Source of the DNA: an archaeon
GTDB lineage: Archaea; Hydrothermarchaeota; Hydrothermarchaeia; JALTZZ01
Reading direction: 5' to 3'
NCBI GenBank assembly: GCA_027051165.1
Contig: JALTZZ010000029.1
Span: 9,001 to 73,000 of the forward strand
DNA: 64,000 nucleotides
The position numbers and the translations under genes were made by a program. The notes under the pieces were generated by a model. That model was given only the letters and a program-made list of their open reading frames with translations, ran no database searches and was not told where the DNA came from. Every line of letters begins with the position of its first letter. The stretch's first letter is position 1. Shown piece after piece: positions 7,355 through 63,552 of this stretch.

Positions 7355-7924
7355 ATGTATAGCGAAACGCTAAGGCAGCTTATACATGCAAGCGGAATTT
7401 TTATGATCCCGATATCCCATGCAATTTATACGTATTTGGGCAAGGACTTCCTTCTATTCTTCTATTTATCTATGATATTATTTTTAGTTTTTCTCTCAAG
7501 GGTCATTAAAAAAAGCAGATACTTTTTTGAATTTTTTAAAATAGTTGATAGAAAGGAAGATTTAAAGGTTATGCCAGCAAAAGGAGCTATAAATTTTTTT
7601 ATCGGAATACTTTTAGTCAGTGTTTTTTTCGATATAAAAACGTTGTATATATCTATAGCGGTTCTCTCCTTAGGCGATTCTTTCTCAACAATAGTTGGAA
7701 AGAGATTTGGTAAGCATAAAATTCCTTACAATAGAAAAAAATCTGTAGAAGGGTTCTTTGCTTTTGTTGTTTTTGCTTTTATTGGAAGTATATTTTTCTG
7801 CGATATTAAAACGGCTCTACTCGTATCTATCTTTGGAGCACTTATAGAGTCTCTTCCATTAAGGGTGGATGACAACATATCTATACCCATATCCGTGGCT
7901 GTTTTTTTGAATTTTCTTTTATAG
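7355..7924 (+). CDS. Polytopic membrane protein of the CTP-dependent phosphatidate cytidylyltransferase / dolichol kinase-like family
   Basis: C-terminal SLGDSFSTIVGKRFGKHKIP motif plus hydrophobic helices. Confidence 0.4.
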   Translation: MYSETLRQLIHASGIFMIPISHAIYTYLGKDFLLFFYLSMILFLVFLSRVIKKSRYFFEFFKIVDRKEDLKVMPAKGAINFFIGILLVSVFFDIKTLYISIAVLSLGDSFSTIVGKRFGKHKIPYNRKKSVEGFFAFVVFAFIGSIFFCDIKTALLVSIFGALIESLPLRVDDNISIPISVAVFLNFLL

Positions 7925-8011
7925 CTTTGATTGGCAGCTGAGCAAATGACGGTTATTTTTGAAATTAAAATAAAAACATCATGTCAGCGAGAAATAGAAG
8001 AGTTATAAGAG
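7923..8011 (+). repeat. Direct repeat copy A (~90 bp) starting TATAGCTTTGATTGGCAG...ATGTCAGCGAGAAATAGAAGAGTTATAAGAG
   Basis: Near-identical to 8645-8741. Begins at the stop codon of the upstream gene. Confidence 0.8.
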
Positions 8012-8083
8012 CAAAATGCAGAAAAATCTTTAGCAGATTTTCCTTTATTTTTGTTTTTAATGTTAAGATAAGCAGAAAGCTAC

Positions 8084-8617
8084 ATGGTGGATTACGACAA
8101 GCTCGTTGATAAGCTCAAAGAAGCCCTGCTTGGGGATCTAAGAAAAGAGCTTAGGGAGTTTAAAAAGGAGGTTTCCGGCTTATTAGAGGGCTTTAGAATC
8201 GCTATTGAAACTATGAACAAGCGCATGGACTCCTTGGAAAAAGATTTAAGAGAGCTTAGGGATAGAATTGACAAAGTTAGAGAAGAGCTAACAAAAAGAA
8301 TTGATGAGACCAATAAACGCATAGATGAGACCAATAAAAGAATTGATGAACTCTCAGGAAGCTTAAACGCAAGGATAGATGAGACCAATAAGAGGATAGA
8401 CGAAACTAACGCAAGGATAGACAAGGTTAGGGAAGAGCTTGCGGCGATGATCATGGAGACAAACACAAGGATAAACGAGACTAACAAGAGGATTGACGAT
8501 CTTACTATGGAGATAAGCAATCTGAAAGCTGAATTTGAAAGGTTTAGAAAGGATCAGGAGGTAATAAAAGATATCTTAGTTAGGTTGAGAAAGCTTGAAG
8601 AAAAGGTATTTACTTAA
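8084..8617 (+). CDS. Coiled-coil protein with tandem heptad repeats (RIDETNK x ~6)
   Basis: 177 aa; repeats TKRIDETNKRIDETNKRIDE...ARIDETNKRIDETNARIDK; flanked by the ~90-bp direct repeats. Confidence 0.5.
   Translation: MVDYDKLVDKLKEALLGDLRKELREFKKEVSGLLEGFRIAIETMNKRMDSLEKDLRELRDRIDKVREELTKRIDETNKRIDETNKRIDELSGSLNARIDETNKRIDETNARIDKVREELAAMIMETNTRINETNKRIDDLTMEISNLKAEFERFRKDQEVIKDILVRLRKLEEKVFT
8296..8420 (+). repeat. Tandem 21-nt coding repeats (AGAATTGATGAGACCAATAAA-like units)
   Basis: Repeated nucleotide units encode the RIDETNK heptads. Confidence 0.7.
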
Positions 8618-17522: not shown

Positions 17523-18089
17523 TCATAAAACCTTCTTTAAGTTCTCACCGCTGTAGAGATAAACATCAACATCAAAATCTATGTATTTTTCTATTTTTTT
17601 AATATTTTTTAGAATATTTTCATCAACTTCATTTCCCAAAACTCCAAAGACAACCTTAACACTTCTTCCAGTAAAGATAGAATGATTTTTTATTTTTCTC
17701 TGCTTATCTTTTATATTTACTAATTTTTTTATTATATTTCTTGGATTTCTCTCTATTTCAATAAAAATTGCGTCGTTTTCCCTTAAAATAACGATATCTG
17801 GTCTGTATCCTACCCTTGAAAGCTTTGTGTCCTCAGCTTCTAAATAGTATGCATCTCCCTCTTTTATAATCTCATTAAAAAGAAGGTTCTTCATTATATA
17901 GTGCTCCATACTTTCATTGCTCTTCCTCTTTAATTTAAAATTCTGCTCTTTTATTGCAATTCTAATTTCTTTTATTGCATTCTCCAAGCTTCTGCTTTTT
18001 AAGATTCTGTTTATGCTTTCAAGCTCATCTATTATTTTCTCAAGCCTTTCTATCATAGAGAATATCCCTACTTCTCTTAACAATTTCAT
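17523..18089 (-). CDS. Hypothetical protein with PD-(D/E)XK-like motif, overlapping the 3' end of mutS
   Basis: GYRPDIVILRENDAIFIEIERN resembles a PD..ExE/K nuclease core. Overlaps the mutS stop by ~50 nt (17 nt if it starts at Met-12). Confidence 0.35.
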   Translation of the reverse strand: MKLLREVGIFSMIERLEKIIDELESINRILKSRSLENAIKEIRIAIKEQNFKLKRKSNESMEHYIMKNLLFNEIIKEGDAYYLEAEDTKLSRVGYRPDIVILRENDAIFIEIERNPRNIIKKLVNIKDKQRKIKNHSIFTGRSVKVVFGVLGNEVDENILKNIKKIEKYIDFDVDVYLYSGENLKKVL

Positions 18090-20577
18090 CGAGCTTCATA
18101 AGGGCTTTTATTGGAGTTAAATTTATGACATCTATTTCTGAAATTTCGCTCAAAAATTCAACTATAGCTCTATCTTCTGTTTTGAAGTCAATGTTGCTTG
18201 AAATTTCATAAGCTCTATTTACAACCTCCCTTGGCAAGCCAGCAAGTTCTGCAATTTTTATTCCATAGCTTTCTTTTAAGCTTCCCCTTTTTATTTTTCT
18301 ATCAAATATTATTTTATTGTCCTCCTCTTTAAGTTCAAAATGATAATTTTTAACACCGCTCAGCTTCTTTTCAAGCTCAGCAAGCTCGTGGTAATGTGTT
18401 GCGAACAACGTTTTTGCCCCAATATAGTCATGTATATATTCAACAACAGCCTGTGCTAAGCTAAGTCCATCTTTTGTGCTCGTCCCTTTTCCAACTTCAT
18501 CTAACAGTATTAAACTTCTTCTTGTGGCATTTTTCAAAATTTTTCCAACTTCAATCATTTCCACCATAAAAGTGCTGTATCCACGTGTTATATCATCAAC
18601 AGCTCCTATTCTTGTAAATATCCTGTCAACAACACCTATAACGGCATAACTTGCAGGAACAAAGCTCCCTATCTGTGCAAGCACGGTAATAAGGGCTACC
18701 TGTCTTAGATATGTTGATTTTCCAGACATGTTCGGACCAGTTACTATAAGTATTCTGCTATCTTCATCGAGAACAGCATCGTTTGCGACGAATTTTGTAG
18801 TCCTTTCTACGGTTGGATGCCTTCCGTCTCTTATTATAATTGCATAACCATTGTTTACCTTTGGTCTCGTATATCTGTATAGAGAGGCTACCTCTGCTAA
18901 GCTTGCAAGAACGTCCATCTCCGCTATAATTTTTGCACAGTTTTTAATTCTTTTACTGTGTTTAGCCACGTCATTTCTTACCTTTTCAAAAATTTCGTAT
19001 TCAAGTTTTTTTATTCTTTCTTCACATGCCAATATCTTCTCTTCCCTCTCTTTAAGCTCAGGGATTGTAAATCTCTCTGCATTAACTAAGGTCTGCTTTC
19101 TTATGTAGTATTTTGGAACGTTTTTTGCCTTTGCCTTTGAAACCTCAATATAATATCCAAAAACTGTATTGTAGCCTACCCTAAGATTTTCTATACCAGT
19201 TCTTTTTCTTTCCCTTTCTTCAAGCTTCTTAATAAATTCCTCATGCTCTTTTTTAATTTTTCTAAGATTATCGAGCTCTTTATTAAATCCACTCTTTATT
19301 ATTCCGCCTTCTTTTAAGGTTATTGGTGGATCATCAACTATTGCTTTGTCTATAAGTTCATATACCTCCTTTAGCGTGTCCAAGCTTCCAACAAGTTCCG
19401 AGAGCTTCCTTGATCTAAAGGAGAAGTTTTTAAGCTTAGAGGCGGCAAGCAGAGAATTCTTCAAAGCTACCAAATCTCTTGCATTTGCACTTTTAAAGTC
19501 TATTCTGCTTGATATTCTCTCTATATCGTAAACTTCCTTTAAAATTTCTCTAATTTCATATCTTAAATACGATTTTTCTTTAAGTTCCTCTACGGCATCG
19601 AGTCTTCTCTCTATTTCATCAACATTTATTAGTGGGCGCTGAAGCCACTTCTTTAGAAGCCTACTTCCCATTGCAGTGATCGTTTTATCAAGAATTTCTA
19701 TTAATGTTCCTTTCTGCGATCCGTCTATAAGATTTCTAAATATTTCAAGGTTTTTTAGGGTAGTTGTATCAAGAATCATGTAATCGTGTGCGGAGTATTT
19801 CTGTATTCTAAAATCAATATCCCTTAGATGCGTTTCTCTAACATAACTAACTGCTGCTCCACAAGCTCTTATGCATGCATCTTCGAGCTCCAAGCTTTCG
19901 AAGTCTCTTATGCAAGATTTCAGCAGATTTTTAGCCTCTTCTAAGGAAAACTTTTCATTTTCTATTTTATGGATAACTTTAATATTCTTTTTAAGCTCTT
20001 CAAACATCTCTTCATCAATATTTTTTGGAACTATGCATTCCACTGGGTTAAGCTTTATTATTTCAGCAAAAACCTCGTCCTTATTTTTGGCTACAGTTGC
20101 TAAAAATTCTCCAGTTGAAACATCCAAGAATGCCATGCCATATTTATTTTTATGCTCAACTAAGCTGAGAAGGAAGTTGTTTTCCCTTGTTAAAAGCTCC
20201 TCCTCAACGAGCGTTCCGGGGGTTATTACCCTCACAACCTCCCTTTTTACAAGCCCCCTTGCCTTTGATGGGTCTTCAACCTGCTCGCAGATAGCAACCT
20301 TGTATCCCTTTTCTATGAGCTTCTTTATATACGGATAGACTGCATGGTGGGGAACACCTGCCATAGGTGTTTTCTTATCCCTTGAGGTTAAAACTATACC
20401 AAGCTCCCTTGAAGCTATTTTTGCATCTTCATCAAAGAGCTCATAGAAGTCTCCAAGCCTAAAGAAAAGTAGAGCATCTTTATACTTCTCTTTTATCCTA
20501 TAATACTGCTCCATCATTGGAGTGAGCTTACCTGAATTTCCATGCCTCTTCTTTGAGCTTTTTAAATTTTGCATCAT
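18040..20577 (-). CDS. mutS: DNA mismatch repair protein MutS (MutS1)
   Basis: 845 aa; N-terminal TPMMEQY..IK..Y.DALLFFRLGDFYELF mismatch-binding motif; Walker A GPNMSGKST; DELGRGTS-like DEVGKGTS; HYHEL. Confidence 0.95.
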   Translation of the reverse strand: MMQNLKSSKKRHGNSGKLTPMMEQYYRIKEKYKDALLFFRLGDFYELFDEDAKIASRELGIVLTSRDKKTPMAGVPHHAVYPYIKKLIEKGYKVAICEQVEDPSKARGLVKREVVRVITPGTLVEEELLTRENNFLLSLVEHKNKYGMAFLDVSTGEFLATVAKNKDEVFAEIIKLNPVECIVPKNIDEEMFEELKKNIKVIHKIENEKFSLEEAKNLLKSCIRDFESLELEDACIRACGAAVSYVRETHLRDIDFRIQKYSAHDYMILDTTTLKNLEIFRNLIDGSQKGTLIEILDKTITAMGSRLLKKWLQRPLINVDEIERRLDAVEELKEKSYLRYEIREILKEVYDIERISSRIDFKSANARDLVALKNSLLAASKLKNFSFRSRKLSELVGSLDTLKEVYELIDKAIVDDPPITLKEGGIIKSGFNKELDNLRKIKKEHEEFIKKLEERERKRTGIENLRVGYNTVFGYYIEVSKAKAKNVPKYYIRKQTLVNAERFTIPELKEREEKILACEERIKKLEYEIFEKVRNDVAKHSKRIKNCAKIIAEMDVLASLAEVASLYRYTRPKVNNGYAIIIRDGRHPTVERTTKFVANDAVLDEDSRILIVTGPNMSGKSTYLRQVALITVLAQIGSFVPASYAVIGVVDRIFTRIGAVDDITRGYSTFMVEMIEVGKILKNATRRSLILLDEVGKGTSTKDGLSLAQAVVEYIHDYIGAKTLFATHYHELAELEKKLSGVKNYHFELKEEDNKIIFDRKIKRGSLKESYGIKIAELAGLPREVVNRAYEISSNIDFKTEDRAIVEFLSEISEIDVINLTPIKALMKLDEIVKRSRDILYDRKA

Positions 20578-28903: not shown

Positions 28904-28976
28904 GGGCCCGTAGCTCAGCAGGCAGAGCGCCGCCTTCGCAAGGCGGAGGCCTCGGGTTCGAATCCCGACGGGTCCA
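28904..28976 (+). tRNA. tRNA-Ala (anticodon CGC); its 3' part (28935-28976) is the provirus att core
   Basis: Cloverleaf: acceptor GGGCCCG/CGGGUCC with the G3:U70 Ala identity pair; anticodon stem CCGCC/GGCGG with loop UUCGCAA; T-arm UCGGG-UUCGAAU-CCCGA; followed by an oligo-T. Confidence 0.95.
28935..28976 (+). repeat. attL core (42 bp; 3' part of tRNA-Ala)
   Basis: Identical to 63294-63335. Confidence 0.9.
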
Positions 28977-29186
28977 TTTTGATCGTTTTGCACAAAAGAG
29001 GCTTGAGTTAAGCTTATTTTTTACAACAATTTTTTCATTTACAAATTTGTTTTCATTTACGCTATTTTTTGCGTATTTTAAAATATTTTCGAATACTTTC
29101 CGTTTAGCTCTTTTGTCTTTATATACACTATTGATGAATTCTTCAACCCTGCTCATTGTCCTAAGCGAATTTCCAGTATTATACAA
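28935..29186 (-). CDS. int: Integrase N-terminal fragment int(N) of an SSV-type split tyrosine integrase (with in-frame att core)
   Basis: Minus-strand ORF MYNTGNSLRTMSRVEEFINSV...CAKRSK followed by core-encoded WTRRDSNPRPPPCE. The same 14 aa are encoded in the same frame in the int(C) ORF at the other end. The listed 138-aa ORF 28770-29186 is a read-through across the tRNA. Confidence 0.7.
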
Positions 29187-30006: not shown

Positions 30007-30450
30007 GTGATCAACATGACCGAGGTTGTGGGTAAGGACTTGAAGACCGTGTGGATGGCTGTGGACATTTTGAGGCATGAAGGATTTGAGGTTGATGCCA
30101 AGAGAGCGATGAGAGCGGTAAAGCAGAAAATGAAGCTTGTAGAGTGCTTGAAAGATAAAAACGGCAGAGTTTGGGCAATAGTTAAGAACGGAGAAGGAAA
30201 AGAGTATGAAGTAAGGATAAGCGTAAGCGAGAAGATAGTTAGGTGCTCCTGCGAAGACCACAAATACAGAAAAACTGTCTGCAAGCATGCAATTTTCGTT
30301 TTTCTTAACTGCTTTGAAGAAGCCCAAGAAAAAGCCAAGAAAAAACAAGACGATCTAAGCGAGGAAGAAGTTTCACAGGATACTGCTAAAATGCTCAGCG
30401 AAATGGAAGGCCCAGAAAAAGAAGAAGTTGAAGCTTTCTACGGGTGGTGA
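30007..30450 (+). CDS. SWIM-type zinc finger protein (paralogue of 41910-42320)
   Basis: C-x-C-x(n)-C-x-H: RCSCEDHKYRKTVCKHAIFV; the C-terminus ...EAFYGW is shared with the paralogue. Confidence 0.5.
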   Translation: MINMTEVVGKDLKTVWMAVDILRHEGFEVDAKRAMRAVKQKMKLVECLKDKNGRVWAIVKNGEGKEYEVRISVSEKIVRCSCEDHKYRKTVCKHAIFVFLNCFEEAQEKAKKKQDDLSEEEVSQDTAKMLSEMEGPEKEEVEAFYGW

Positions 30451-35214: not shown

Positions 35215-35736
35215 ATGGAAAGAATAGTTAAATGCAAGCTTGACTGCTGCGATACCAGAGCTTTCGAGTGCGACGAGGAAAATTGCAAAACACAGATGCT
35301 GTGCTGCAAATGTCCAAGTGGAACACCTGAGTTACCAAAAGTAGAGTGTCCAAACTGCGGGGCTATTGCAGACATGGGCGAGCTTTTCGAAGTCGAGACA
35401 TTCCCAGAAACGAGCTTACAAAAGATTTACAACAAAATAGCAGGAATAATAAACGATTTCATTTTATTTTTAAGGGACGTATTAAGTGGCGGAGTGTATT
35501 GCTCTAAATGGCCAAAAATCATAAACAAAATAACGGGAAGATCAAGGTTTAGAGTTCCCTACAAGATAGTTGATAAGCTACTGCCAACACTTCCATACTG
35601 GAGACTAAAATATTTTGATCATTTTATTTGGATCTGTAAAAAATGCGGAATGAAGTATTTAGACCCGGATCCTTATACTTTTCTAACTTTTGATTATAAA
35701 AAAGAGGAGTGTGTGGAAAATGAAGGCCGTTTGTGA
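35215..35736 (+). CDS. Cys-rich hypothetical protein
   Basis: Multiple CxxC pairs (CKLDCCD, CCKCPSG, CPNCG, CKKCGM); GGAGG Shine-Dalgarno sequence upstream. Confidence 0.35.
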   Translation: MERIVKCKLDCCDTRAFECDEENCKTQMLCCKCPSGTPELPKVECPNCGAIADMGELFEVETFPETSLQKIYNKIAGIINDFILFLRDVLSGGVYCSKWPKIINKITGRSRFRVPYKIVDKLLPTLPYWRLKYFDHFIWICKKCGMKYLDPDPYTFLTFDYKKEECVENEGRL

Positions 35737-36466
35737 AGGAAAATACCTACGGGGAGTATTTGAGGCGGTAGGAAAGATAGTGAACACAGCAATACTGAAA
35801 GCAAGCGAGGACGGCATGAAACTGAGAGCAATGAACTCAGAGCATACAATACTCGTTGACATGGAACTTGAAAAAAGTTTGTTCGAAGACTACGAAATAG
35901 AAGAAGACGAAAGCATAGGCATAGACATTAGCCAGCTGCTGAAGATACTGAAAAGAGCGAAAAAAGACGACAACATTACATTAGAAACAAGCAAAGAAAC
36001 AATAAAAATAACAATTGACGGCACTGCAGAGAGGACGTTTGAGTTCCCAGCATTAGCAGACGTCGAAGAAGATGAAATAAAGTTCCCAGAGCTTAACTAT
36101 GAAGCGGAAATATCCATTGAGGATCCAAGTGTCCTTAAGGAAATCATGAAAGACGTGGAGATAGTAGGCAACGCTGCTGTGCTTAAGGCAACAAAAGAGG
36201 AGTTTATAATACAAGCTCAAGGAAACGGATATGCATTCTCGAGCTACAAAGCGGCTCCCAGCAACATAAGCCTAAACCTTGATGAAGAGGCTGAAGAGGT
36301 AAAAAGTGCGTTCTCCGTCGAGCTCCTGAAGGATGTTCTGAGAGCGGACAAGTTCATATATAATGCTAAGGTCCATCTTGGCAACGACATCCCACTTAAG
36401 CTTGAGTATACAGGGCCGGGAATAAAGCTGACATACCTAATAGCCCCAAGAATCGAAAACGAATAA
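35720..36466 (+). CDS. Virus-encoded PCNA (DNA polymerase sliding clamp) homologue
   Basis: MKAVCEGKYLRGVFEAVGKIVNTAILKASEDGMKLRAMNSEHTILVDMELEKSLFEDYEIEEDESIGIDISQLLKILKR ... LGNDIPLKLEY ... LIAPRIE matches the PCNA topology and motifs over ~248 aa. Confidence 0.7.
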   Translation: MKAVCEGKYLRGVFEAVGKIVNTAILKASEDGMKLRAMNSEHTILVDMELEKSLFEDYEIEEDESIGIDISQLLKILKRAKKDDNITLETSKETIKITIDGTAERTFEFPALADVEEDEIKFPELNYEAEISIEDPSVLKEIMKDVEIVGNAAVLKATKEEFIIQAQGNGYAFSSYKAAPSNISLNLDEEAEEVKSAFSVELLKDVLRADKFIYNAKVHLGNDIPLKLEYTGPGIKLTYLIAPRIENE

Positions 36467-36518
36467 TTTTTTATTATTTTTTATTTTTTAAGAGAAAAGA
36501 AAAAACGGGTGAATAAAA

Positions 36519-37142
36519 ATGGATAAAAAAACATATTATCAGACCAGAAACAAAATATTTAATGTCATTTGGATATCAATAATCCCACCAAGGGGGTACA
36601 ACAGAAGGAAGAAGATAGTAATTCTGCCGAGCGAGCTACATAAATTCGTTTTCTGTCCAAAACAATTTTTATTCGACAAAAAATTAAAGAGAAAACCGCC
36701 ATTAAAGAGAAGGATTCTTATTCTTATAGGAAAGATAAAACATTATTTATATATAAAGAGAGGCTACAAGAAAGAGCACCTGCTCGAGGCCGAAATACCA
36801 TGGCTTAACGCAGTGCTGATAGGCAAACCAGATGCTTTCAAAGTTAAAGATAATGTAATAATTCTGGAAGAACTAAAAAATAGGAATGGGCCACTTAATG
36901 GTGCATGGGATTCTGATGTAATTCAAGCATTAGCTTACGCATATCTTTTAAAAGAAAACTATGGCAAAAACGTTAAGATAACTATAATATATAAGAACAG
37001 AAAAGTCGAAGTTCCTTATAACGAGGCTCTTTTAAAGCTATGTTTAGCGGACTATGTAGCCGTAGCAATCGGAGCAAGCGTCCCCATAGCCAAGAAAAGC
37101 GGAAAGTGCAGATGGTGCCAATATCAAGCGGAGTGCAAATAA
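36519..37142 (+). CDS. Cas4-like PD-(D/E)XK nuclease with Fe-S cysteine motif (viral Cas4-like)
   Basis: N-terminal Cys (FVFCPKQF); D..ExK (GKPDAFKVKDNVIILEELK); C-terminal C-x2-C-x5-C (CRWCQYQAEC). Confidence 0.55.
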   Translation: MDKKTYYQTRNKIFNVIWISIIPPRGYNRRKKIVILPSELHKFVFCPKQFLFDKKLKRKPPLKRRILILIGKIKHYLYIKRGYKKEHLLEAEIPWLNAVLIGKPDAFKVKDNVIILEELKNRNGPLNGAWDSDVIQALAYAYLLKENYGKNVKITIIYKNRKVEVPYNEALLKLCLADYVAVAIGASVPIAKKSGKCRWCQYQAECK

Positions 37143-38286: not shown

Positions 38287-38787
38287 ATGAAGCTTGACAA
38301 ACTTGACGCCACTAAGGAAAAGCTTGACAACCTTGACGAGCTTGACGCTGTGACCGTGCCCAATCCCCGCTGCAAAATCTGCCGCTCGCCATATTTGCAC
38401 GAGATAAACAGGATGCTTATTGAAGGCAAGCCATACAGCGAGATAATAGCCAAGTTCCCAGATCTCAATCTAAACAAGCAGAACATAAGCAACCATAAAA
38501 AACACTTTAATTTCATTAGACGAGGGATAGAAAAATATTACCAACAGCTTGAGGAGGGGGCTGACAAGATCGTTGACACTATAAAAATCCTCGACGATGT
38601 AATAATGAGGAGCTACGTTTTTTTAGCTGAAACGAACCCAAAAGAAAAGCCAAGAGTTTGGGAAGTTCTAACAAATGCAATATACAGGGCAGCAAGTTTA
38701 AAACATAAAATAATGGGAGACTATGATGAAGAAGAAGGTTTACTCGAAGAAATATTTGGAAAAGCTGAGGATATTGAAGAAAAATAA
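38287..38787 (+). CDS. Putative terminase small subunit (position-based) with N-terminal CTTGAC repeat cluster
   Basis: Immediately upstream of, and overlapping, terL. The 5' 75 nt contain five CTTGAC hexamers (KLDKLD..KLDNLDELD). Confidence 0.35.
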   Translation: MKLDKLDATKEKLDNLDELDAVTVPNPRCKICRSPYLHEINRMLIEGKPYSEIIAKFPDLNLNKQNISNHKKHFNFIRRGIEKYYQQLEEGADKIVDTIKILDDVIMRSYVFLAETNPKEKPRVWEVLTNAIYRAASLKHKIMGDYDEEEGLLEEIFGKAEDIEEK

Positions 38788-40087
38788 AGAATTGAAAGAA
38801 AAAATTAAAAAAGATCCAGTTATATTTTCAAAATTTCTTCTTAATTTTGACCCTCATGAAGCACAGCAACAAATAATGAGAGATACACACAAATTTATAA
38901 CAGTAGTTGCAGGAAGAAAGTTTGGTAAAACAAAATGCATGGCAGCATATGCTTTATTTTACGCTTTAACAAATCCTAAGCATAGAATACTCGTCGTTGC
39001 ACCAAGCTATTCCCAAGCGTCAATAATGTTTAGGGAAATGTATAATTTTATAAGAAGATCAATTATAAACAAATATGTGTCAAAAATACTAAAAACTCCG
39101 TTTCCACAGATATATTTCAAGAACGATGCTGAAATACATGCAAGATCAACACAAAATCCGGACCTACTGAGAGGTGAGGAAGCAAATCTAATAATAATGG
39201 ATGAAGCTGCATATATTAAAGACGATGTAGTAACCAACGTTCTTGAGCCAATGCTACTTGTAACAAATGGCAGGTGGATAAAAATATCTACACCAGCTGG
39301 TCATAATCATTTTTATGATACCTTCCTTAAGGGACTAAGTGAAGAGTTCCCAGAATATTCAAGTTATCACTTCACATCAACGGCTAATCCTTATGTAAGC
39401 GAAGACTTTATTGAACTAAAAAAGAAAGAGCTTGGAGAAAATTCAATTGCTTTTAGAACAGAATATTTAGCTGAGTTCGTAGAGGATCATAATGCAGTTT
39501 TCAGATGGTCAGATATTCAGAAAAATGTTGCAGATATTGAGCTAATTGACGGGGCTGAGCATATAAGCCGCAGCTATGTTATAGGAGTTGATTTAGCTAA
39601 ATATCAAGATTATACTGTTATCTGCGTTCTCGATGCAACTGAAAAGCCCTATCGCTTAGTTCATTTTGAGAGGTTTAACAGAAGACCTTACGCAGAGGTT
39701 ATTGAGAGAGTTAAGGATCTACATCGCAGGTTCAACGGTGCCAAGGTTCTAATAGACAGCACTGGTGTAGGAGACCCTATCCTGGAGGAACTGCAAGCTT
39801 CTATAGGAGCCGAGGGATACGTATTTACGAGTAAGAGCAAGGTGCAACTTATTCAGAAATTACAAGCTGTTATGGAGAATGGGGAAATAAAATACCCGTA
39901 TATCGAGCCGTTGGTCAAGGAACTACAATTTTTCGAATACCAATTGACGAGAACAGGCGTAAAAATGGAAGCAAGGCAAGGAATGCACGACGACTGTGTG
40001 ATAGCACTTGCATTAGCCGTGTGGGCGGCGGAGCAGTATTCAGGCTCTGCGGGTGGGGAGATCTATCTTGGCTACTCATTTTTATAA
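38723..40087 (+). CDS. terL: Terminase large subunit
   Basis: Walker A VVAGRKFGKTK; Walker B LIIMDEAAYI; C-terminal RNaseH-like nuclease segment (VIGVDLAKYQDYTVICVLD ... HDDCVIALALA). Confidence 0.7.
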   Translation: MMKKKVYSKKYLEKLRILKKNKELKEKIKKDPVIFSKFLLNFDPHEAQQQIMRDTHKFITVVAGRKFGKTKCMAAYALFYALTNPKHRILVVAPSYSQASIMFREMYNFIRRSIINKYVSKILKTPFPQIYFKNDAEIHARSTQNPDLLRGEEANLIIMDEAAYIKDDVVTNVLEPMLLVTNGRWIKISTPAGHNHFYDTFLKGLSEEFPEYSSYHFTSTANPYVSEDFIELKKKELGENSIAFRTEYLAEFVEDHNAVFRWSDIQKNVADIELIDGAEHISRSYVIGVDLAKYQDYTVICVLDATEKPYRLVHFERFNRRPYAEVIERVKDLHRRFNGAKVLIDSTGVGDPILEELQASIGAEGYVFTSKSKVQLIQKLQAVMENGEIKYPYIEPLVKELQFFEYQLTRTGVKMEARQGMHDDCVIALALAVWAAEQYSGSAGGEIYLGYSFL

Positions 40088-40153
40088 CATTTATAGCCCT
40101 CCCCACAGCATCCAGCACGCATCAGGTGTTAGACCCACATCTGCGTGCCGCTT

Positions 40154-40921
40154 TCACGGAGATGAGCTCAAATACAAGTTAACCATCAGCAGCAAATGCC
40201 TTCTAAGGCTCGTAAAGCCATACTCCAAGCTCTCGGTTATCACCTCCAGTTCTTTTGAATTATAAACATACGAATAAAGACTATAGGGCGAGTATTGCCT
40301 AAACTCTATTTCTTTTTTCAACTTCTCAAAATCAATTTTGCTTTTTGCTTTAAGGCTATATCTGCTAAAACTTTTGAACCTAACTCTTCTCGTGATCATG
40401 GCAGACAATCTATCGAACTTCTGCAGGGTTTTAAGCTCCTCATCCTCAATTTCATCATGATGGTGAACGCAGAGCCATCTTACCCTATCGTCCTTAATCT
40501 CGACATCAAAGTAAATTTTGCTCTGATGCTTAGGCGTAGAGACGAAATCATGAAGCAACATAGCTAAAACCATTCTTTCCTGAGCAGGAGAGAGCTTTGG
40601 CAAGCACCTCATTATTTTTATCTTTTTTCTTGGCTTTGGCGGAGCAACATTCTCCTCAACTTTAAGCCAGCGAACTCTACCCATACCTTCGCTTTGGAAC
40701 CTTCCTAAAGAATCAAGTAACAAAACCTTCTCAGGCTCGTTTGTATAATACTCAACAATGCCGAAAAAAGCCTTAAAACTGCTTGGAAACATTCTAACAT
40801 CCTTCTTTATCTTCCCGTAGAATCTTTCAACACCCTTAATTATAACGAGACCGTAATCATGTCCAAATCTTCTTTCCTTGGTAACAATAGGCGTTATAGT
40901 TTTGCCGACTACCTTAAACAT
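40154..40921 (-). CDS. Hypothetical protein with an N-terminal RAMP-like G-rich-loop segment and a C-terminal His-rich (HD-like?) region
   Basis: N-terminal ~90 aa end in LGRFQSEGMGRVRW (G-x5-G-h-G loop). The C-terminal part carries LLHDF and CVHHHDEIED. Last gene of the 4-gene minus-strand cassette. Confidence 0.3.
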   Translation of the reverse strand: MFKVVGKTITPIVTKERRFGHDYGLVIIKGVERFYGKIKKDVRMFPSSFKAFFGIVEYYTNEPEKVLLLDSLGRFQSEGMGRVRWLKVEENVAPPKPRKKIKIMRCLPKLSPAQERMVLAMLLHDFVSTPKHQSKIYFDVEIKDDRVRWLCVHHHDEIEDEELKTLQKFDRLSAMITRRVRFKSFSRYSLKAKSKIDFEKLKKEIEFRQYSPYSLYSYVYNSKELEVITESLEYGFTSLRRHLLLMVNLYLSSSP

Positions 40922-41669
40922 TTAGAACCCTCACCTTCTCCTTATACTCGACCTTATAGCCGTCTATCGTTTTAACAAGCTTTCTGATCTCCTCAACCTC
41001 TTCAAGAACTATTTTCCTCAGCATAACTTTACCGTAGCCAGCATTGACCCCGCCGCCAAGCTCTTCTATATAAAGCAAAGATTCAAGAATGAAATTAAGT
41101 TCCTCATCGTTAAGCTTGGTCACATCAATGAAAAAAGTAAAGTCTCCGCTTATATATCCCTCCTTGAAGTCCTGTATTGGTTTCTTGTCGTAGCTTAGAG
41201 CAATTCTGTTTTCCGTTGCGATGTGCATTTTTACAATAGGAATATCTGACCTATACTCCGCATGCTTTATATTTGCTATCGGGGGACTCCATACTCTTAT
41301 TTTGCTTGGAACATGCATAGAGCCAAATATTTTATGAATTATGCACTCGTTTAGCGGATAGCAGCTTCCAAGCGGATGGAATCCCTCAGGTATAAGCTTG
41401 TTTCCGTGCTTATCCTCTTCTTTGTCAGATGTATGGCAGACCTCTATACCCTTGGCTCTGGCACATCTCATAGCTGCATGCCTTAGCAAGCCCTTGAGCC
41501 CCTTGATGTAGTAAGCTTCCGCCTTGTGCTCCTTACCGTTGTTCGTGTAGGGAACCGGAGCAAGCTTAAGCAAAACCTTAGATTTTTGAACCGTTCCGTT
41601 GCTCGGCTTTGCTATGGGAGTATAGGCTTCAACTCTTATTCTTTTATATTTCTTCTTTATCTCAAACAT
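40914..41669 (-). CDS. RAMP-like (Cas7/Csm3- or Cas6-like) protein encoded in the provirus, with no CRISPR locus in the window
   Basis: YYIKGLKGLLRHAAMR resembles the (S/G)xxKGxLR RAMP motif. A four-Cys cluster (C-x8-C...C-x6-C) is followed by IIHKIFGS (cf. the Csm3 CxxC-RLFGS). C-terminal G-rich loop ELGGGVNAGYGKV. Confidence 0.35.
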   Translation of the reverse strand: MFEIKKKYKRIRVEAYTPIAKPSNGTVQKSKVLLKLAPVPYTNNGKEHKAEAYYIKGLKGLLRHAAMRCARAKGIEVCHTSDKEEDKHGNKLIPEGFHPLGSCYPLNECIIHKIFGSMHVPSKIRVWSPPIANIKHAEYRSDIPIVKMHIATENRIALSYDKKPIQDFKEGYISGDFTFFIDVTKLNDEELNFILESLLYIEELGGGVNAGYGKVMLRKIVLEEVEEIRKLVKTIDGYKVEYKEKVRVLNV

Positions 41670-41916
41670 GTTTATCCCTCTCAGGCGTTATAGTCATTGC
41701 AACCTCATTCTCATCTTCCATAAGTTCCGAAAACTTCATCGTGAAGAGAACTTTTAATTTTACGTTTGAAATAAATTTCTTCTTTGCGAGGTCTTTAACT
41801 GCGGTTATTATGACTATATTCTCTCCACAGCACGGGCATTTGGTTTTTGTCGCTTGTATCATTCTGCTCTTTATGGCTTCGTGAAAAATCTTAAGATATT
41901 CTTCCATTTTCACCAC
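41662..41916 (-). CDS. Small zinc-ribbon protein (cassette gene 2)
   Basis: 84 aa, CPCCGEN; overlaps both neighbours. Confidence 0.3.
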   Translation of the reverse strand: MVKMEEYLKIFHEAIKSRMIQATKTKCPCCGENIVIITAVKDLAKKKFISNVKLKVLFTMKFSELMEDENEVAMTITPERDKHV

Positions 41917-42320
41917 CCGTAGAAAGCCTTAACTTCTTCCTCAAGTTCTTTATCAACGTTTTCGGTAAGGCTCTTTTTATCCCCGTCTCTTAAACTTCTG
42001 AAAAGAACAAAGAGGATGTGTTTGCAGATTGTTTTTCTGAACTTATGATCTTCGCAAGAGCACCAGAAGTATTTGTTTTCAGTATCAATCCTTACCTCAT
42101 ATTTTTTCTTCTTTTCTTTGTTTTCAACGACTGCCCAAACAATCTCCTCGGCTCTTATCATCTCTTTTATCTTTAGCTTGTTGTTAACAGCTCTTATGGC
42201 TCTTTCCGCATCTATCTCCAATCCTATAGCTCTTAGCCAATCCACAACTCCCCAAATCTCCCTCACAAGCTTCTTATAAACCTTGAAGGTTGCAACCACA
42301 CGAGCCATCTTGACCACCAA
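41910..42320 (-). CDS. SWIM-type zinc finger protein (paralogue of 30007-30450; cassette gene 1)
   Basis: WCSCEDHKFRKTICKHILFV; C-terminal KAFYGW. Confidence 0.5.
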   Translation of the reverse strand: MVVKMARVVATFKVYKKLVREIWGVVDWLRAIGLEIDAERAIRAVNNKLKIKEMIRAEEIVWAVVENKEKKKKYEVRIDTENKYFWCSCEDHKFRKTICKHILFVLFRSLRDGDKKSLTENVDKELEEEVKAFYGW

Positions 42321-42414
42321 CCACTTTCATTGACCGTCATTATAATAAATGACCTTCACAATTGAAAATAAATTTGTAACGAAAGATTTAAATATAATTA
42401 TCAATACATGTATA

Positions 42415-42606
42415 TACATGACCGAAAAGTTTGAATTTGAACTTAAGGGACAAATTGAAGAAATCTTTAAAAAAAAGATTTGGAAAAGCGGTGGAGCTAA
42501 AACACCCTCAATAACAATACCTAAAAAGTATCTTGAAGGAAAAGAAGAAGTCCAATTAATAATAGTAAAAAAGCCTGATGGCAATTATGCAATTGTGATT
42601 CAATAA
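42415..42606 (+). CDS. SpoVT/AbrB-like small DNA-binding protein
   Basis: KIWKSGGAKTPSITIPKKYLEGKEEV is a swapped-hairpin-like motif. Confidence 0.35.
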   Translation, partial: YMTEKFEFELKGQIEEIFKKKIWKSGGAKTPSITIPKKYLEGKEEVQLIIVKKPDGNYAIVIQ

Positions 42607-42712
42607 CATGATTATAAAAATATTTTATAATGATATTTTTATTTTACATAAATGCCTGTTATATATCTCAGCCTATCTCATCCGATAAACAAAATTACTA
42701 TAAAAAACTTAT

Positions 42713-42725
42713 TTTTAAAGTCTAT
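42713..42725 (+). promoter_or_regulatory. Provirus promoter motif TTTTTAAAGTCTA (AAAGTCT 25 nt upstream of portal ATG 42743)
   Basis: Member of the recurrent motif family. Confidence 0.5.
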
Positions 42726-42742
42726 CAGATACTGATTTTTTC

Positions 42743-43882
42743 ATGAGAATTATAAAGAAAATAGTTCAAAATTTTACAAGAAAACAAGCAAAGTACGAGG
42801 CGGAGAAGGTTGAGATTTTTCCATTCAGCAACTTGGACAACAGCATAGCCTTCAGCTCAGGGGTTTTAGCAAACTACAGCGATTACGAGAGGCTTTATTT
42901 TACCAGCGTTGATGCAGCAACTGCGATTGATCTCATAGCCCATTATGCGATCACGGAGATCAGCTTTAGCGGTGACGAGAAAGACGTTGAAATAGCAGAA
43001 GAATTTGCTAAACGTGTTAATTTGAGATCAAGGCTTATCAATGATGTGCGAATGATGCTGATTTATGGAAATAGCTACGAATACATAGCAAACGACGAAA
43101 ATGGAGAAATAGTGTTGCAGAACCTGAACCCAAAAATGGTTACAATTAAGGTTGACAAATACGGCGAGATCCAAGCTTACAGATACCAGCCGAGCAAGGG
43201 CGTTGATCTGCCACCAGAGCGAATCATGCACTTCGCCTATGGAAGGCTTGGCAATTCACCTTACGGCTATTCGTTGGTGCACCAAGTATATGGCGACATA
43301 GTCCTTAAGCAGGCGATAGAAAAAGTTCTTGCGTATATTGCACACAGAATGAGCCACCCGCTTTTGCATGCTCGAGTGAAGAATCCTCAAAAGATCAAAG
43401 ATGTCGCAAATCTGCTTGCAAGCAGAATAAAAGACAACAGTTCAAGTGTAGAAAAAATCCAAATTTTAAACGAAATAGTGACCGATGAGGGAGTAGAGCT
43501 TCAGGTTCTCAACCCACAGTTAGATATCAGCGGAATTGTCAGAGCTTTAGAATATCTGCAGAACAAAGTTGACAAGGCTCTCAAGGTTCCCCGAATATTT
43601 TACGGTGAGCCTGAGGGAAGCAATAGGGCAAGCTCCTACAACCAGATCAGAATTTTTAGATTGTTTTTGGATTCATTAAGGGCTATTGTGAAAGAAGAAA
43701 TGGAAAAGAAGCTTTTCCCAGCTTTGAACATAGATGTAGAGATAGAATTTGAAGAGATTACAACAGAGGAAGAGATGGCATGGGCTGACATCGCAGCGAA
43801 ATTATACGAAGCAGGCATAGTGGCCACGGACGAAGCAAGAGAAATGATTGGTCTTCCACCGAGAGAAGAGGCTGAAGAATGA
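42743..43882 (+). CDS. Putative portal protein
   Basis: 379 aa; position between terL and the MuF-like gene (canonical terS-terL-portal-MuF order). No motif-level confirmation. Confidence 0.45.
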   Translation: MRIIKKIVQNFTRKQAKYEAEKVEIFPFSNLDNSIAFSSGVLANYSDYERLYFTSVDAATAIDLIAHYAITEISFSGDEKDVEIAEEFAKRVNLRSRLINDVRMMLIYGNSYEYIANDENGEIVLQNLNPKMVTIKVDKYGEIQAYRYQPSKGVDLPPERIMHFAYGRLGNSPYGYSLVHQVYGDIVLKQAIEKVLAYIAHRMSHPLLHARVKNPQKIKDVANLLASRIKDNSSSVEKIQILNEIVTDEGVELQVLNPQLDISGIVRALEYLQNKVDKALKVPRIFYGEPEGSNRASSYNQIRIFRLFLDSLRAIVKEEMEKKLFPALNIDVEIEFEEITTEEEMAWADIAAKLYEAGIVATDEAREMIGLPPREEAEE

Positions 43883-45340: not shown

Positions 45341-45353
45341 TTTTTAAAGTCTA
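45341..45353 (+). promoter_or_regulatory. Provirus promoter motif TTTTTAAAGTCTA (AAAGTCT 25 nt upstream of ATG 45371)
   Basis: Member of the recurrent motif family. Confidence 0.5.
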
Positions 45354-45370
45354 ACAGTTGGCTCTTTTTC

Positions 45371-51173: not shown

Positions 51174-51186
51174 TTTTTAAAGTCTA
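51174..51186 (+). promoter_or_regulatory. Provirus motif TTTTTAAAGTCTA upstream of 51215/51239
   Basis: Member of the recurrent family. A small hairpin GGCCCT-AAGTG-AGGGCC (51207-51223) follows. Confidence 0.35.
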
Positions 51187-51238
51187 ATGCTTCGCTTTTT
51201 TCTCAAGGCCCTAAGTGAGGGCCGAGGAGAGATTTATC

Positions 51239-62417: not shown

Positions 62418-63335
62418 CTAACTCACCAGTATAGGGAACTTGTCCACAACTTTCTTGTAGTGCTCTATAGCTTGCATCCTCAGAAACAAATAATGCTTGC
62501 TCCCTACTTTAACGCTCGCCCTTCCTTGCATAAAATCGGCCACACTTTCAGGGATATTATGCAAAACGAAAAAATTATCAACCCATTTTCTTATAGCATT
62601 TGCATCAATACGTGAGTTAACAGGAGGCCTCCATTTTCTTGGGTTAAGTCTCGCATACCATGATTTATATTTAAGCTTTTTATTTATAGATCTCAACTTC
62701 TCAGCAAACTCCGAAGGAAAGACTGCTATAAAACTTCTTTTTGTTCCTCTTGAAAATTCTACCATAGGATATGCCGCCACGTTGCCGTGATATTCTATTT
62801 TATTCTTGTCAAAATTTCGGAGAGCCAATATGGAAGGTTTTGCTCTCAATCCTGTAAAAACAAGCCATTGGTATAGAATTAAAGTATCTTCATCCCACTT
62901 CTCTTTGATTAAATAGTAACCTTGTTTTATCTCTTCATTAGTTAGATAAACTTCTCTTACACCAGATTTTGGGATTTTAAGAAAGCTTGAAGATAGAATA
63001 TCCATTGCTATCCATCTGTTCATCATCTCTCTTTCAACGAGATAGTGAATTAAGTTCCTCACGGCTCTAACGAAACGTTCTTTATCCGTGCATTTATAGA
63101 AAGCCTTCCTAAGATCTTCTTTTGATTTAATGGGTTTATCTAAGTATTTATCAAGGATTTTTATTATTTCGTTAAGATATTCTTTACTCGTTATTTTTGG
63201 CTTCTTTTCTATTGTTAGGTAGTTTATGAAGTCTTTTTCATCAACATCATACCAATTTATTATGTATCCTTCTATTTGAATTATATTTTCATTTTCGCAA
63301 GGCGGAGGCCTCGGGTTCGAATCCCGACGGGTCCA
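62418..63335 (-). CDS. int: Integrase C-terminal fragment int(C) of an SSV-type split tyrosine integrase (with in-frame att core)
   Basis: The minus-strand ORF encodes the core peptide WTRRDSNPRPPPCE, then NENIIQIEGY...FTGLRAKP...HNIPESVADFMQGRASVKVGSKHY (recombinase R / H..R / Y residues). Upstream of the core, the listed ORF start MLILCKTNKK is host-derived read-through. Confidence 0.75.
   Translation of the reverse strand, partial: WTRRDSNPRPPPCENENIIQIEGYIINWYDVDEKDFINYLTIEKKPKITSKEYLNEIIKILDKYLDKPIKSKEDLRKAFYKCTDKERFVRAVRNLIHYLVEREMMNRWIAMDILSSSFLKIPKSGVREVYLTNEEIKQGYYLIKEKWDEDTLILYQWLVFTGLRAKPSILALRNFDKNKIEYHGNVAAYPMVEFSRGTKRSFIAVFPSEFAEKLRSINKKLKYKSWYARLNPRKWRPPVNSRIDANAIRKWVDNFFVLHNIPESVADFMQGRASVKVGSKHYLFLRMQAIEHYKKVVDKFPILVS
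63294..63335 (+). repeat. attR core (42 bp partial tRNA-Ala copy)
   Basis: Identical to 28935-28976. Its flank 63336-~63400 is ~80% similar to 28977-~29045. Confidence 0.9.
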
Positions 63336-63552
63336 CTTTTTATTTGTTTTACACAAAATAAGCATGAATTAAGCTTATTTTTTGCAAAATTATTTTCATT
63401 TTTAACATTATTTTTGCACTTTTCTATAGATTCTAAATAATCCTCTTACAGAAAGCATAAATATTACTGGAGTATAGAAAAGATAAATTTATCAAAATTT
63501 TTATGCGTTGGAAAGATTGATCCCTTAATCTCAAGCCACATCTTACAAGAGA

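Follow-up and report, generated by a model that had tools for sequence, protein, structure and literature searches.

We analyzed a stretch of archaeal DNA of 64,000 nt (contig JALTZZ010000029.1, positions 9,001-73,000, assembly GCA_027051165.1), hereafter the window, to whose numbering all coordinates refer. The window contains a provirus of ~34.4 kb, of the archaeal head-tailed virus type and integrated at a tRNA-Ala gene. Between its terL and portal genes lie four minus-strand genes, which an initial annotation made from the sequence alone had read as a cassette built around two RAMP-like proteins. The four open reading frames (ORFs) were found exactly where that annotation had placed them, and the motifs it had quoted from the two larger proteins are all present in the translations (YYIKGLKGLLRHAAMR, IIHKIFGS and ELGGGVNAGYGKV; LGRFQSEGMGRVRW, LLHDF and CVHHHDEIED). 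These two proteins are a Cas7-like RAMP and a Cas5-HD fusion, and downstream of the Cas5-HD gene lies a structured RNA that the annotation had missed (Table 1). Adjacent genes overlap by 8 nt at the RAMP/Cas5-HD and zinc-ribbon/RAMP junctions and are separated by a 2-nt gap at the zinc-ribbon/SWIM junction, a packing that would suit translational coupling of the four genes. The lengths first given for the two smaller products hold for the ORFs; the ATG starts, taken from independent gene calls on the same sequence, give shorter proteins.

Table 1 Features of the cassette region and of the provirus, in window coordinates
Feature	Position	Strand	Length or remark
tRNA-Ala(CGC)	28904-28976		Integration site
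SWIM paralogue	30007-30450	+	Near left provirus end
Cas4-family nuclease gene	36519-37142		PF01930, 35.8 bits
terL	38723-40087	+	
Structured pseudoknotted RNA	40086-40168	-	Covariance-model match, 40078-40172
Cas5-HD gene	40154-40921	-	255 aa; Cas5-like RAMP domain, ~residues 1-90; Cas10-type HD phosphohydrolase domain, ~residues 110-255
Cas7-like RAMP gene	40914-41669	-	251 aa
CPCC zinc-ribbon gene	41662-41907	-	81 aa from ATG; 84 aa from GTG at 41916
SWIM zinc-finger gene	41910-42308	-	132 aa from ATG; 136 aa from TTG at 42320
Small divergent gene	42349-42606	+	85 aa, possibly 61 aa from ATG at 42421
Portal gene	42743-43882	+	
Archaeal-type integrase ORF	62418-63365	-	Overlaps right-hand repeat
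Duplicated 3' half of tRNA-Ala	63294-63339		46 nt, 98% identical

The 251-aa protein belongs to the Cas7 family of RAMPs and is the backbone subunit of the module. Its resemblance to RAMPs, and more closely to Cas7 and Csm3, was proposed in the initial annotation and is far above chance: the protein matches the Pfam family RAMPs (PF03787) with an E value of 9.8e-12 and 46.2 bits (cut-off 22.1), and several PADLOC Csm3 models as well (Csm3, 1.5e-10). A profile of its family retrieved Cas7-11, type VII Cas7 and Csm3 from the PDB sequences. The AlphaFold2 model, built on a 35-sequence alignment, reached a predicted local distance difference test score (pLDDT) of 88.3 and a predicted template modeling score of 0.84, and the structural check that had been proposed came out in favor of the RAMP fold, as all 50 top Foldseek matches in the PDB were Cas7 backbone subunits. 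The best of them was the type VII Cas7 8yhe_F (3e-9, with an identity of only ~20%), followed by Csm3, the Cascade Cas7s, Csf2 and Cas7-11. Within the alignment, K56, G60, R63, the cluster C78/H79/C103/C109, G205 and G211 are invariant or nearly so. The cluster is located N-terminal to the FGS motif, in a region that aligns with Cas7-11, and the C-terminal glycine-rich loop occupies a modeled α-to-β loop of an RRM (block pLDDT 81-91).

In the 255-aa protein, a Cas5-like domain is joined to a Cas10-type HD domain. The profile libraries assign it to no family and yield one sub-threshold HD match. Its N-terminal part is a Cas5-type RRM domain with a glycine-rich loop (residues 72-85); as in the RAMP protein, the model places this loop at an α-to-β RRM position and not in a disordered linker, with a block pLDDT of 66 for residues 71-80 and 94 for residues 81-90. 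An alignment of 19-21 family members showed G73, E78, G79 and W85 to be invariant in the N-terminal part, and H124, D125, H132, H154, H155, D170 and H242 in the HD part. All residues of the HD metal site are invariant in the family, and the all-helical domain has the H...HD...H...D pattern of His and Asp ligands. The initial annotation had correctly recognized a small RAMP domain followed by a His-rich, nuclease-like C terminus; its choice of Cas6 or Cas7 as the model for this protein is replaced here by Cas5 and a Cas10-type HD.

The conserved unit of the cassette is the Cas7/Cas5-HD gene pair, that is, two of the four genes. The two families were found on the same contigs, 32 of 36 related loci have the Cas5-HD gene immediately behind the RAMP gene, and the pair recurs at 42-66% identity in three unrelated genomic contexts. 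The zinc ribbon and the SWIM protein are missing from the closest relatives (loci L045, L046 and L009). Both were rejected as module parts, being orphans missing from all relatives; they are provirus-specific add-ons outside the conserved module. The proposal that the four genes form one system is therefore not upheld.

Relatives of the pair are overwhelmingly from Asgard archaea, with 11 loci in a single Candidatus Borrarchaeum weybense genome, and the nearest cellular relative of the window pair is L009, from an Archaeoglobales metagenome-assembled genome. The tree of RAMP proteins groups the viral/Archaeoglobales clade with the Borrarchaeum clade as its sister, and the RNA is confined to these two clades. 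The Borrarchaeum loci have a DEAD/ResIII helicase of 1323-1363 aa upstream of the pair; one of the two helicases tested against Pfam carries a near full-length C-terminal Cas1 domain (L018, 36.5 bits; not L010). In the Hod/Heimdall loci, the genes before the pair encode a PD-(D/E)xK-like protein and a further conserved protein. Among viral sequences, GenBank phage records contained neither a RAMP nor even the capsid protein of this provirus, the BFVD fold search gave no meaningful match, and an IMG/VR scan with the RAMP profile found nothing; the same scan with a profile of the HD partner identified one related virus (L051, below). PHROGs has no family for any cassette protein.

No CRISPR-like array was detected in the window or in any of the 52 sequences collected (767 kb in total). 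The provirus has no cas1 or cas2, and Cas1 is missing from the window and from the viral-type relatives. The idea of a virus-borne, stand-alone RAMP module without a CRISPR locus is thus borne out by the provirus setting and the lack of an array in the window. The statement that the window holds no CRISPR repeats was right, and the accompanying one that it holds no other cas genes was not quite so, as the provirus encodes a Cas4-family nuclease (Table 1).

ARAMP (Asgard RAMP) systems were reportedly first described by Makarova et al. (CRISPR J, 2020). In published descriptions they comprise Cas5 and Cas7 homologues, a distinct Cas1 in most loci, and nucleases; they are array-less and derived from type III (PMC8730458; PMC12669027 and its supplement). 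The core of the cassette fits an ARAMP-type system, an assignment made by matching these descriptions and not by family-level sequence comparison. The window module encodes diverged Cas7 and Cas5 homologues together with a nuclease domain, its locus has no CRISPR array or Cas1-Cas2 adaptation module, and its relatives are mainly Asgard; at least one Borrarchaeum relative, unlike the window, carries an unusual Cas1 fused to the upstream helicase. The window itself has no distinct Cas1, a trait that the literature ascribes to "most" loci, which leaves room for membership. It also departs from ARAMP in that its copy resides in a head-tailed provirus of a seemingly non-Asgard archaeon, probably Archaeoglobales-like, and has neither Cas1 nor helicase. 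We read the non-Asgard host as an extension of the host range, not as grounds for exclusion. The putative nuclease of the window module is the HD domain of the Cas5 fusion, whereas ARAMP is mostly mentioned with HNH and PD-(D/E)xK nucleases, and the module neighbors two orphan zinc-binding genes. Compared with CRISPR-Cas proper, where an array supplies CRISPR RNA (crRNA) guides, the RNA of this locus is a single structured element and not a repeat-spacer array. We found no report in the literature of ARAMP in a virus or outside Asgard, and the accessible ARAMP literature does not mention a structured RNA. The initial annotation had considered the system undescribed, and the gene pair fits published ARAMP descriptions; what is new is a viral, non-Asgard, Cas1-less variant of the module with a conserved RNA, the RNA above all.

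Viruses with Cas components and mini-arrays are known (PMC10541130; PMC8730458), and the carriage of this module by a virus could accordingly point to an anti-defense decoy, in which viral look-alikes of Cas7 and Cas5 would sequester crRNAs of the host or disable its type I or type III complexes. The invariant residues of the HD metal site argue for catalysis and not mimicry, the same pair is chromosomal and present in multiple copies in Asgard genomes, and the module has a conserved RNA of its own. We regard such a decoy as very improbable.

The RNA begins in the last Cas5-HD codons and ends at the terL stop codon. It was previously unrecognized, is linked to the module genes and is supported by strong covariation. 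Viral-type copies were found in the window, L045, L046, L049 and L051, giving four distinct sequences with L045 and L046 counted as one. The 26 pairs of P2, P3, P4 and the pseudoknot all form in all four sequences, and 10 of the 26 show double-sided compensatory changes; slid controls gave 34-49% pairing and at most one double-sided compensated pair. The window RNA has a minimum free energy of -33.5 kcal/mol (z = -3.3), its single-stranded segments are CGUGAAAG and GGAUGCUGUG, and the composite motif matched once in the window versus 0 times in 100 shuffles. Neither the viral nor the Borrarchaeum version of the RNA belongs to an Rfam family. Exact 19-nt matches to the loop motif in two unrelated metagenome contigs, L048 and L050, were dismissed as chance, as they had no flanking similarity and no module genes; the collection searched was very large.

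Two copies are found apart from a complete module. L049 carries a solo viral-type RNA including the P1 hairpin (positions 1038-1155) on a 1.25-kb contig with no Cas7/Cas5-HD gene; its homology boundaries are sharp and coincide with the ends of the model, and its source metagenome is that of L045. L051 (IMGVR_UViG_2634166507_000001) is a related virus whose capsid protein is 66% identical to that of the window provirus. What it retains of the module, at 7885-8515, is an ORF of 135 aa for the HD domain alone (starting MLMHDF), together with the RNA and a DUF2080 gene in divergent orientation; Cas7 and the Cas5-like domain have both been lost, and this remnant is located among tail genes, not between terL and portal. 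Because the L049 solo copy is sharp-edged and L051 keeps the RNA without a Cas7 gene, the RNA is a discrete unit.

The Borrarchaeum loci contain a G+C-rich element of ~120 nt between Cas7 and Cas5-HD, and again after Cas5-HD. A candidate Cas11-like small subunit in the former position ("c2" ORFs) was discarded, as these ORFs are the RNA element translated by crude ORF calling. RNAalifold predicted 29 pairs in the Borrarchaeum copies, 10 of them compensated. A covariance model built from this RNA (R1) identified 28 copies (70-132 bits), every one of them adjoining ARAMP genes, with no match in the rest of the 20-kb loci; each Borrarchaeum locus has 1-4 copies, placed both 5' and 3' of the HD gene. 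The only R1 match in the window, at 14.9 bits, lies directly after the Cas5-HD stop codon. It was first judged to be background, given that L009 had no RNA and gave a 12.4-bit match at a random place, a judgment later overturned. The window RNA was accepted because the copies in L045, L046, L049 and L051 show compensatory changes and because a model made from the viral copies alone (R2) matches the Borrarchaeum copies at the R1 positions, with up to 36.4 bits (E = 5e-6). When the two versions were aligned together, pairing of both the mini-hairpin and the loop-tail pseudoknot was complete in all 19 of 19 sequences. At one pair of this pseudoknot, three covarying states were seen (G-C in 9 sequences, C-G in 7 and A-U in the 3 viral copies), and L051 adds a switch from C-G to U-A at a neighboring pair. 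As judged from sequence and predicted pairing, the window RNA is homologous to the Borrarchaeum ARAMP RNA.

The RNA occupies the 3' end of the operon, where convergent genes meet, and this placement could also be explained if the RNA were a cis element, such as a terminator, a 3'-end stabilizer or an autoregulatory site, and not a guide or scaffold. The proteins would then form a non-programmable nuclease or nucleic-acid sensor, a role that has been suggested for ARAMP and HRAMP. The lack of an obvious variable single-stranded spacer is consistent with such an element, as are the L009 and Heimdall/Hod loci, which carry the proteins without the RNA, and reviews expect mechanisms distinct from CRISPR (PMC8730458). 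A pseudoknot compensated across Asgard and viral clades, however, exceeds any need of a terminator. The one to four Borrarchaeum copies on either side of the HD gene, and the L049 copy, which is unattached to any operon, also argue against a cis element, and we consider this explanation rather unlikely.

In L045 and L046, homologues of the small divergent gene lie right next to the RAMP gene on its upstream side, likewise in divergent orientation. The window protein itself matched no profile. The counterpart in L051 is the DUF2080 protein (37.5 bits) with a weak MazE/AbrB-fold match, that in Heimdall loci has a MazE/AbrB fold (E = 6e-12), and that in Borrarchaeum gave a weak, sub-threshold ribbon-helix-helix match. 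From its position and the motif ITIPKKYL, the product in the window is likely a DNA-binding regulator of the module.

MazE/AbrB and, more weakly, ribbon-helix-helix neighbors belong to families typical of toxin-antitoxin loci, and they raise the question of an addiction or abortive-infection system. The HD domain would be the toxic effector, the RNA its antidote or regulator, and Cas7 and the Cas5-like domain accessories, with a logic comparable to that of type III toxin-antitoxin pairs or CreTA. L051 would suit such a system, with an intact HD-only ORF, the RNA and an AbrB-like/DUF2080 gene in the absence of Cas7 and the Cas5-like domain, and the Borrarchaeum RNA copies flank the HD gene specifically. 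On the other hand, the genes for Cas7 and Cas5-HD stay together in 32 of 36 loci and are translationally coupled, and L051 is possibly just a decaying remnant. We consider a system of this kind quite improbable.

We favor, as the probable interpretation, that the two larger genes and the downstream RNA constitute a virus-borne minimal ARAMP-type system, a compact RNA-protein nuclease for genetic conflicts. Its components would be a Cas7-like backbone, a Cas5-HD protein that caps the complex and acts as its nuclease, and, encoded at the 3' end of the operon, a pseudoknotted RNA of its own (~85-95 nt). What these parts are is well supported, by the folds, the intact HD metal-site residues, the close linkage of the two genes, and the structure, linkage and cross-clade homology of the RNA; how they would work together is proposed. 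Transcription would start from the short divergent promoter region common with the gene of the small DNA-binding protein. The 3' RNA would be bound by the Cas5-like domain and Cas7 subunits to give a small ribonucleoprotein, in which the HD domain would act as the catalytic nuclease, and the provirus may turn this particle on competing genetic elements or on host nucleic acids. That ARAMP-type modules in general are RNA-dependent effectors, each with its own non-CRISPR structured RNA as scaffold or guide, is a more doubtful proposition, which we advance only tentatively.

Several observations weigh against the interpretation of the locus as an RNA-guided or RNA-scaffolded ARAMP-type nuclease. 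The ARAMP identity rests on matching the descriptions in PMC8730458 and PMC12669027. L009 has the gene pair and no RNA copy in the 11 kb examined, and Heimdall/Hod-type loci searched with the RNA models yielded no copy either; because of these loci, the RNA is not universal to the protein family. The RNA displays no obvious variable guide-like single-stranded segment, its variable positions being in stems. Only the HD half and the RNA survive in L051, a state that would suit a Cas7-independent partnership of HD domain and RNA at least as well. Finally, the 35-sequence alignment of the 251-aa family has no invariant Asp or Glu in its first 55 residues, and E153 is its sole invariant acidic residue. 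We take the catalytic Asp of Csm3 and Cmr4 to be located in the N-terminal region, in the loop after the first β-strand. Because no invariant acidic residue is present in that expected region, the Cas7-like protein is probably a non-cleaving backbone, and RNA cleavage by this protein itself is doubtful.

The module shares features with other reduced class 1 systems. Like HRAMP, compared here by description, it is a miniature module of Cas5 and Cas7 that lacks an array and adaptation genes, carries nucleases and has no established mechanism; HRAMP, however, belongs to the Halobacteria lineage and is described as only distantly related to ARAMP. With the type III core (Csm3/Cmr4, Csm4/Cmr3 and the Cas10 HD domain), it has in common a Cas7 fold with a Cys/His cluster and FGS motif, and a Cas5-type RRM. 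It differs from type III in the absence of the Cas10 Palm/cyclase domains, Cas11, Cas6 and a CRISPR array, in the fusion of the HD domain to Cas5 and not to Cas10, and, as far as the alignment shows, in having no candidate for the Csm3 catalytic Asp. Type VII provides the best structural match of the 251-aa protein, a Cas7 that is small and non-catalytic, as the 251-aa protein probably is too, but type VII has the Cas14 β-CASP nuclease and CRISPR arrays.

Type IV is similar in being a reduced type III derivative on mobile elements, and IV-C in particular combines Cas7, Cas5 and a Cas10-related HD domain (in IV-C, on Csf1) without an adaptation module. For an archaeal virus with a class 1 effector, the closest precedent is the type IV-B system of the archaeal "Fuxiviridae" (PMC10541130). 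Type IV systems differ in having the Csf1 large subunit, often DinG, CysH or Cas11, and usually CRISPR arrays or host crRNAs, whereas the window module consists of two proteins and a non-CRISPR structured RNA.

The Borrarchaeum copies were observed in L010-L023 (Candidatus Borrarchaeum weybense and yapensis), including 11 diverged module copies in one genome, and typically follow the order large helicase, Cas7, RNA, Cas5-HD, RNA (for example, L018 5563-12656). They have the appearance of a paralogous family that has expanded, or of an old mobile element. In Borrarchaeum loci, Cas7 and Cas5-HD are each preceded by a short hairpin motif, ATCCCGTTA-N9-TAACGGGAT (L010 9917-9960 and 10984-11029), which may be an operator or a processing site. 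In L011 (11903-12373), an ORF through the second RNA copy runs on into GIY-YIG-like sequence (KNKTFYTGYTKDIFERLKLH), and a LAGLIDADG-domain protein adjoins the module in other Heimdall loci; homing-endonuclease-type genes are thus recurrent near Cas7/Cas5-HD modules. A further pair (L031 6477-8415), followed by a small zinc-ribbon gene, is on a contig binned as the planctomycete Candidatus Scalindua sediminis, a placement that reflects either a binning error or transfer to bacteria.

Of the two add-on genes in the window, the one for the zinc ribbon encodes a protein that matched only itself among 1.84 billion representative proteins and has no Pfam, NCBIfam or PHROG family. The SWIM protein scores 20.2 bits against the Pfam SWIM family (cut-off 19.6). 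Its paralogue near the left provirus end is 40% identical, and both share an AFYGW C-terminal tail; beyond this paralogue, a single homologue was found among 5.8 billion proteins, and the SWIM family is nearly restricted to this provirus.

The provirus further encodes PCNA, a prohead protease, an HK97-like capsid protein and a tape-measure protein. PCNA and the Cas4-family PD-(D/E)xK nuclease (35690-37142) are in its replication module, 3 kb from the cassette; PCNA also adjoins the Cas7/Cas5-HD pair in L009. At the provirus boundaries (28904-29053 and 63294-63414), similarity runs ~77 nt past the tRNA end at 78% identity, further than a simple attachment core. The motif TTTTTAAAGTCTA occurs three times (42712-42739, 45341-45368 and 51174-51201), each time just 5' of a morphogenesis gene (portal, prohead protease and a gene starting at 51215), and is probably a common archaeal late promoter. 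The host genes flanking the provirus are archaeal, among them thermosome, Bax1 and an archaeal PEP carboxylase, and the host would from its sequence appear to be a non-Asgard archaeon. The host region also contains a full-length MutS1 of bacterial type (18040-20577, minus strand; 1043 bits to the MutS equivalog).

Among the known descendants of CRISPR effectors, ARAMP and HRAMP are reduced the furthest, and the mechanism of both is not understood. The 2025 classification considers it unclear whether either interacts with any RNA, and states that RNA use would make them new CRISPR-Cas types. An RNA that is supported by covariation and that accompanies the genes in two clades separated by a deep split is a candidate partner, which makes the question of RNA use by ARAMP testable, and the two-protein form without Cas1 or helicase is the easiest version of ARAMP to reconstitute. 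The module has spread beyond Asgard and is carried by head-tailed archaeal viruses, which suggests that it serves in conflicts between genetic elements. If ARAMP-type modules are RNA-dependent effectors, ARAMP would be a new CRISPR-Cas-like type by the criterion of the 2025 classification, and this provirus would carry the smallest natural form of it, with two proteins and a single RNA encoded in ~1.6 kb. The viral version would then be a tractable and possibly programmable minimal model.

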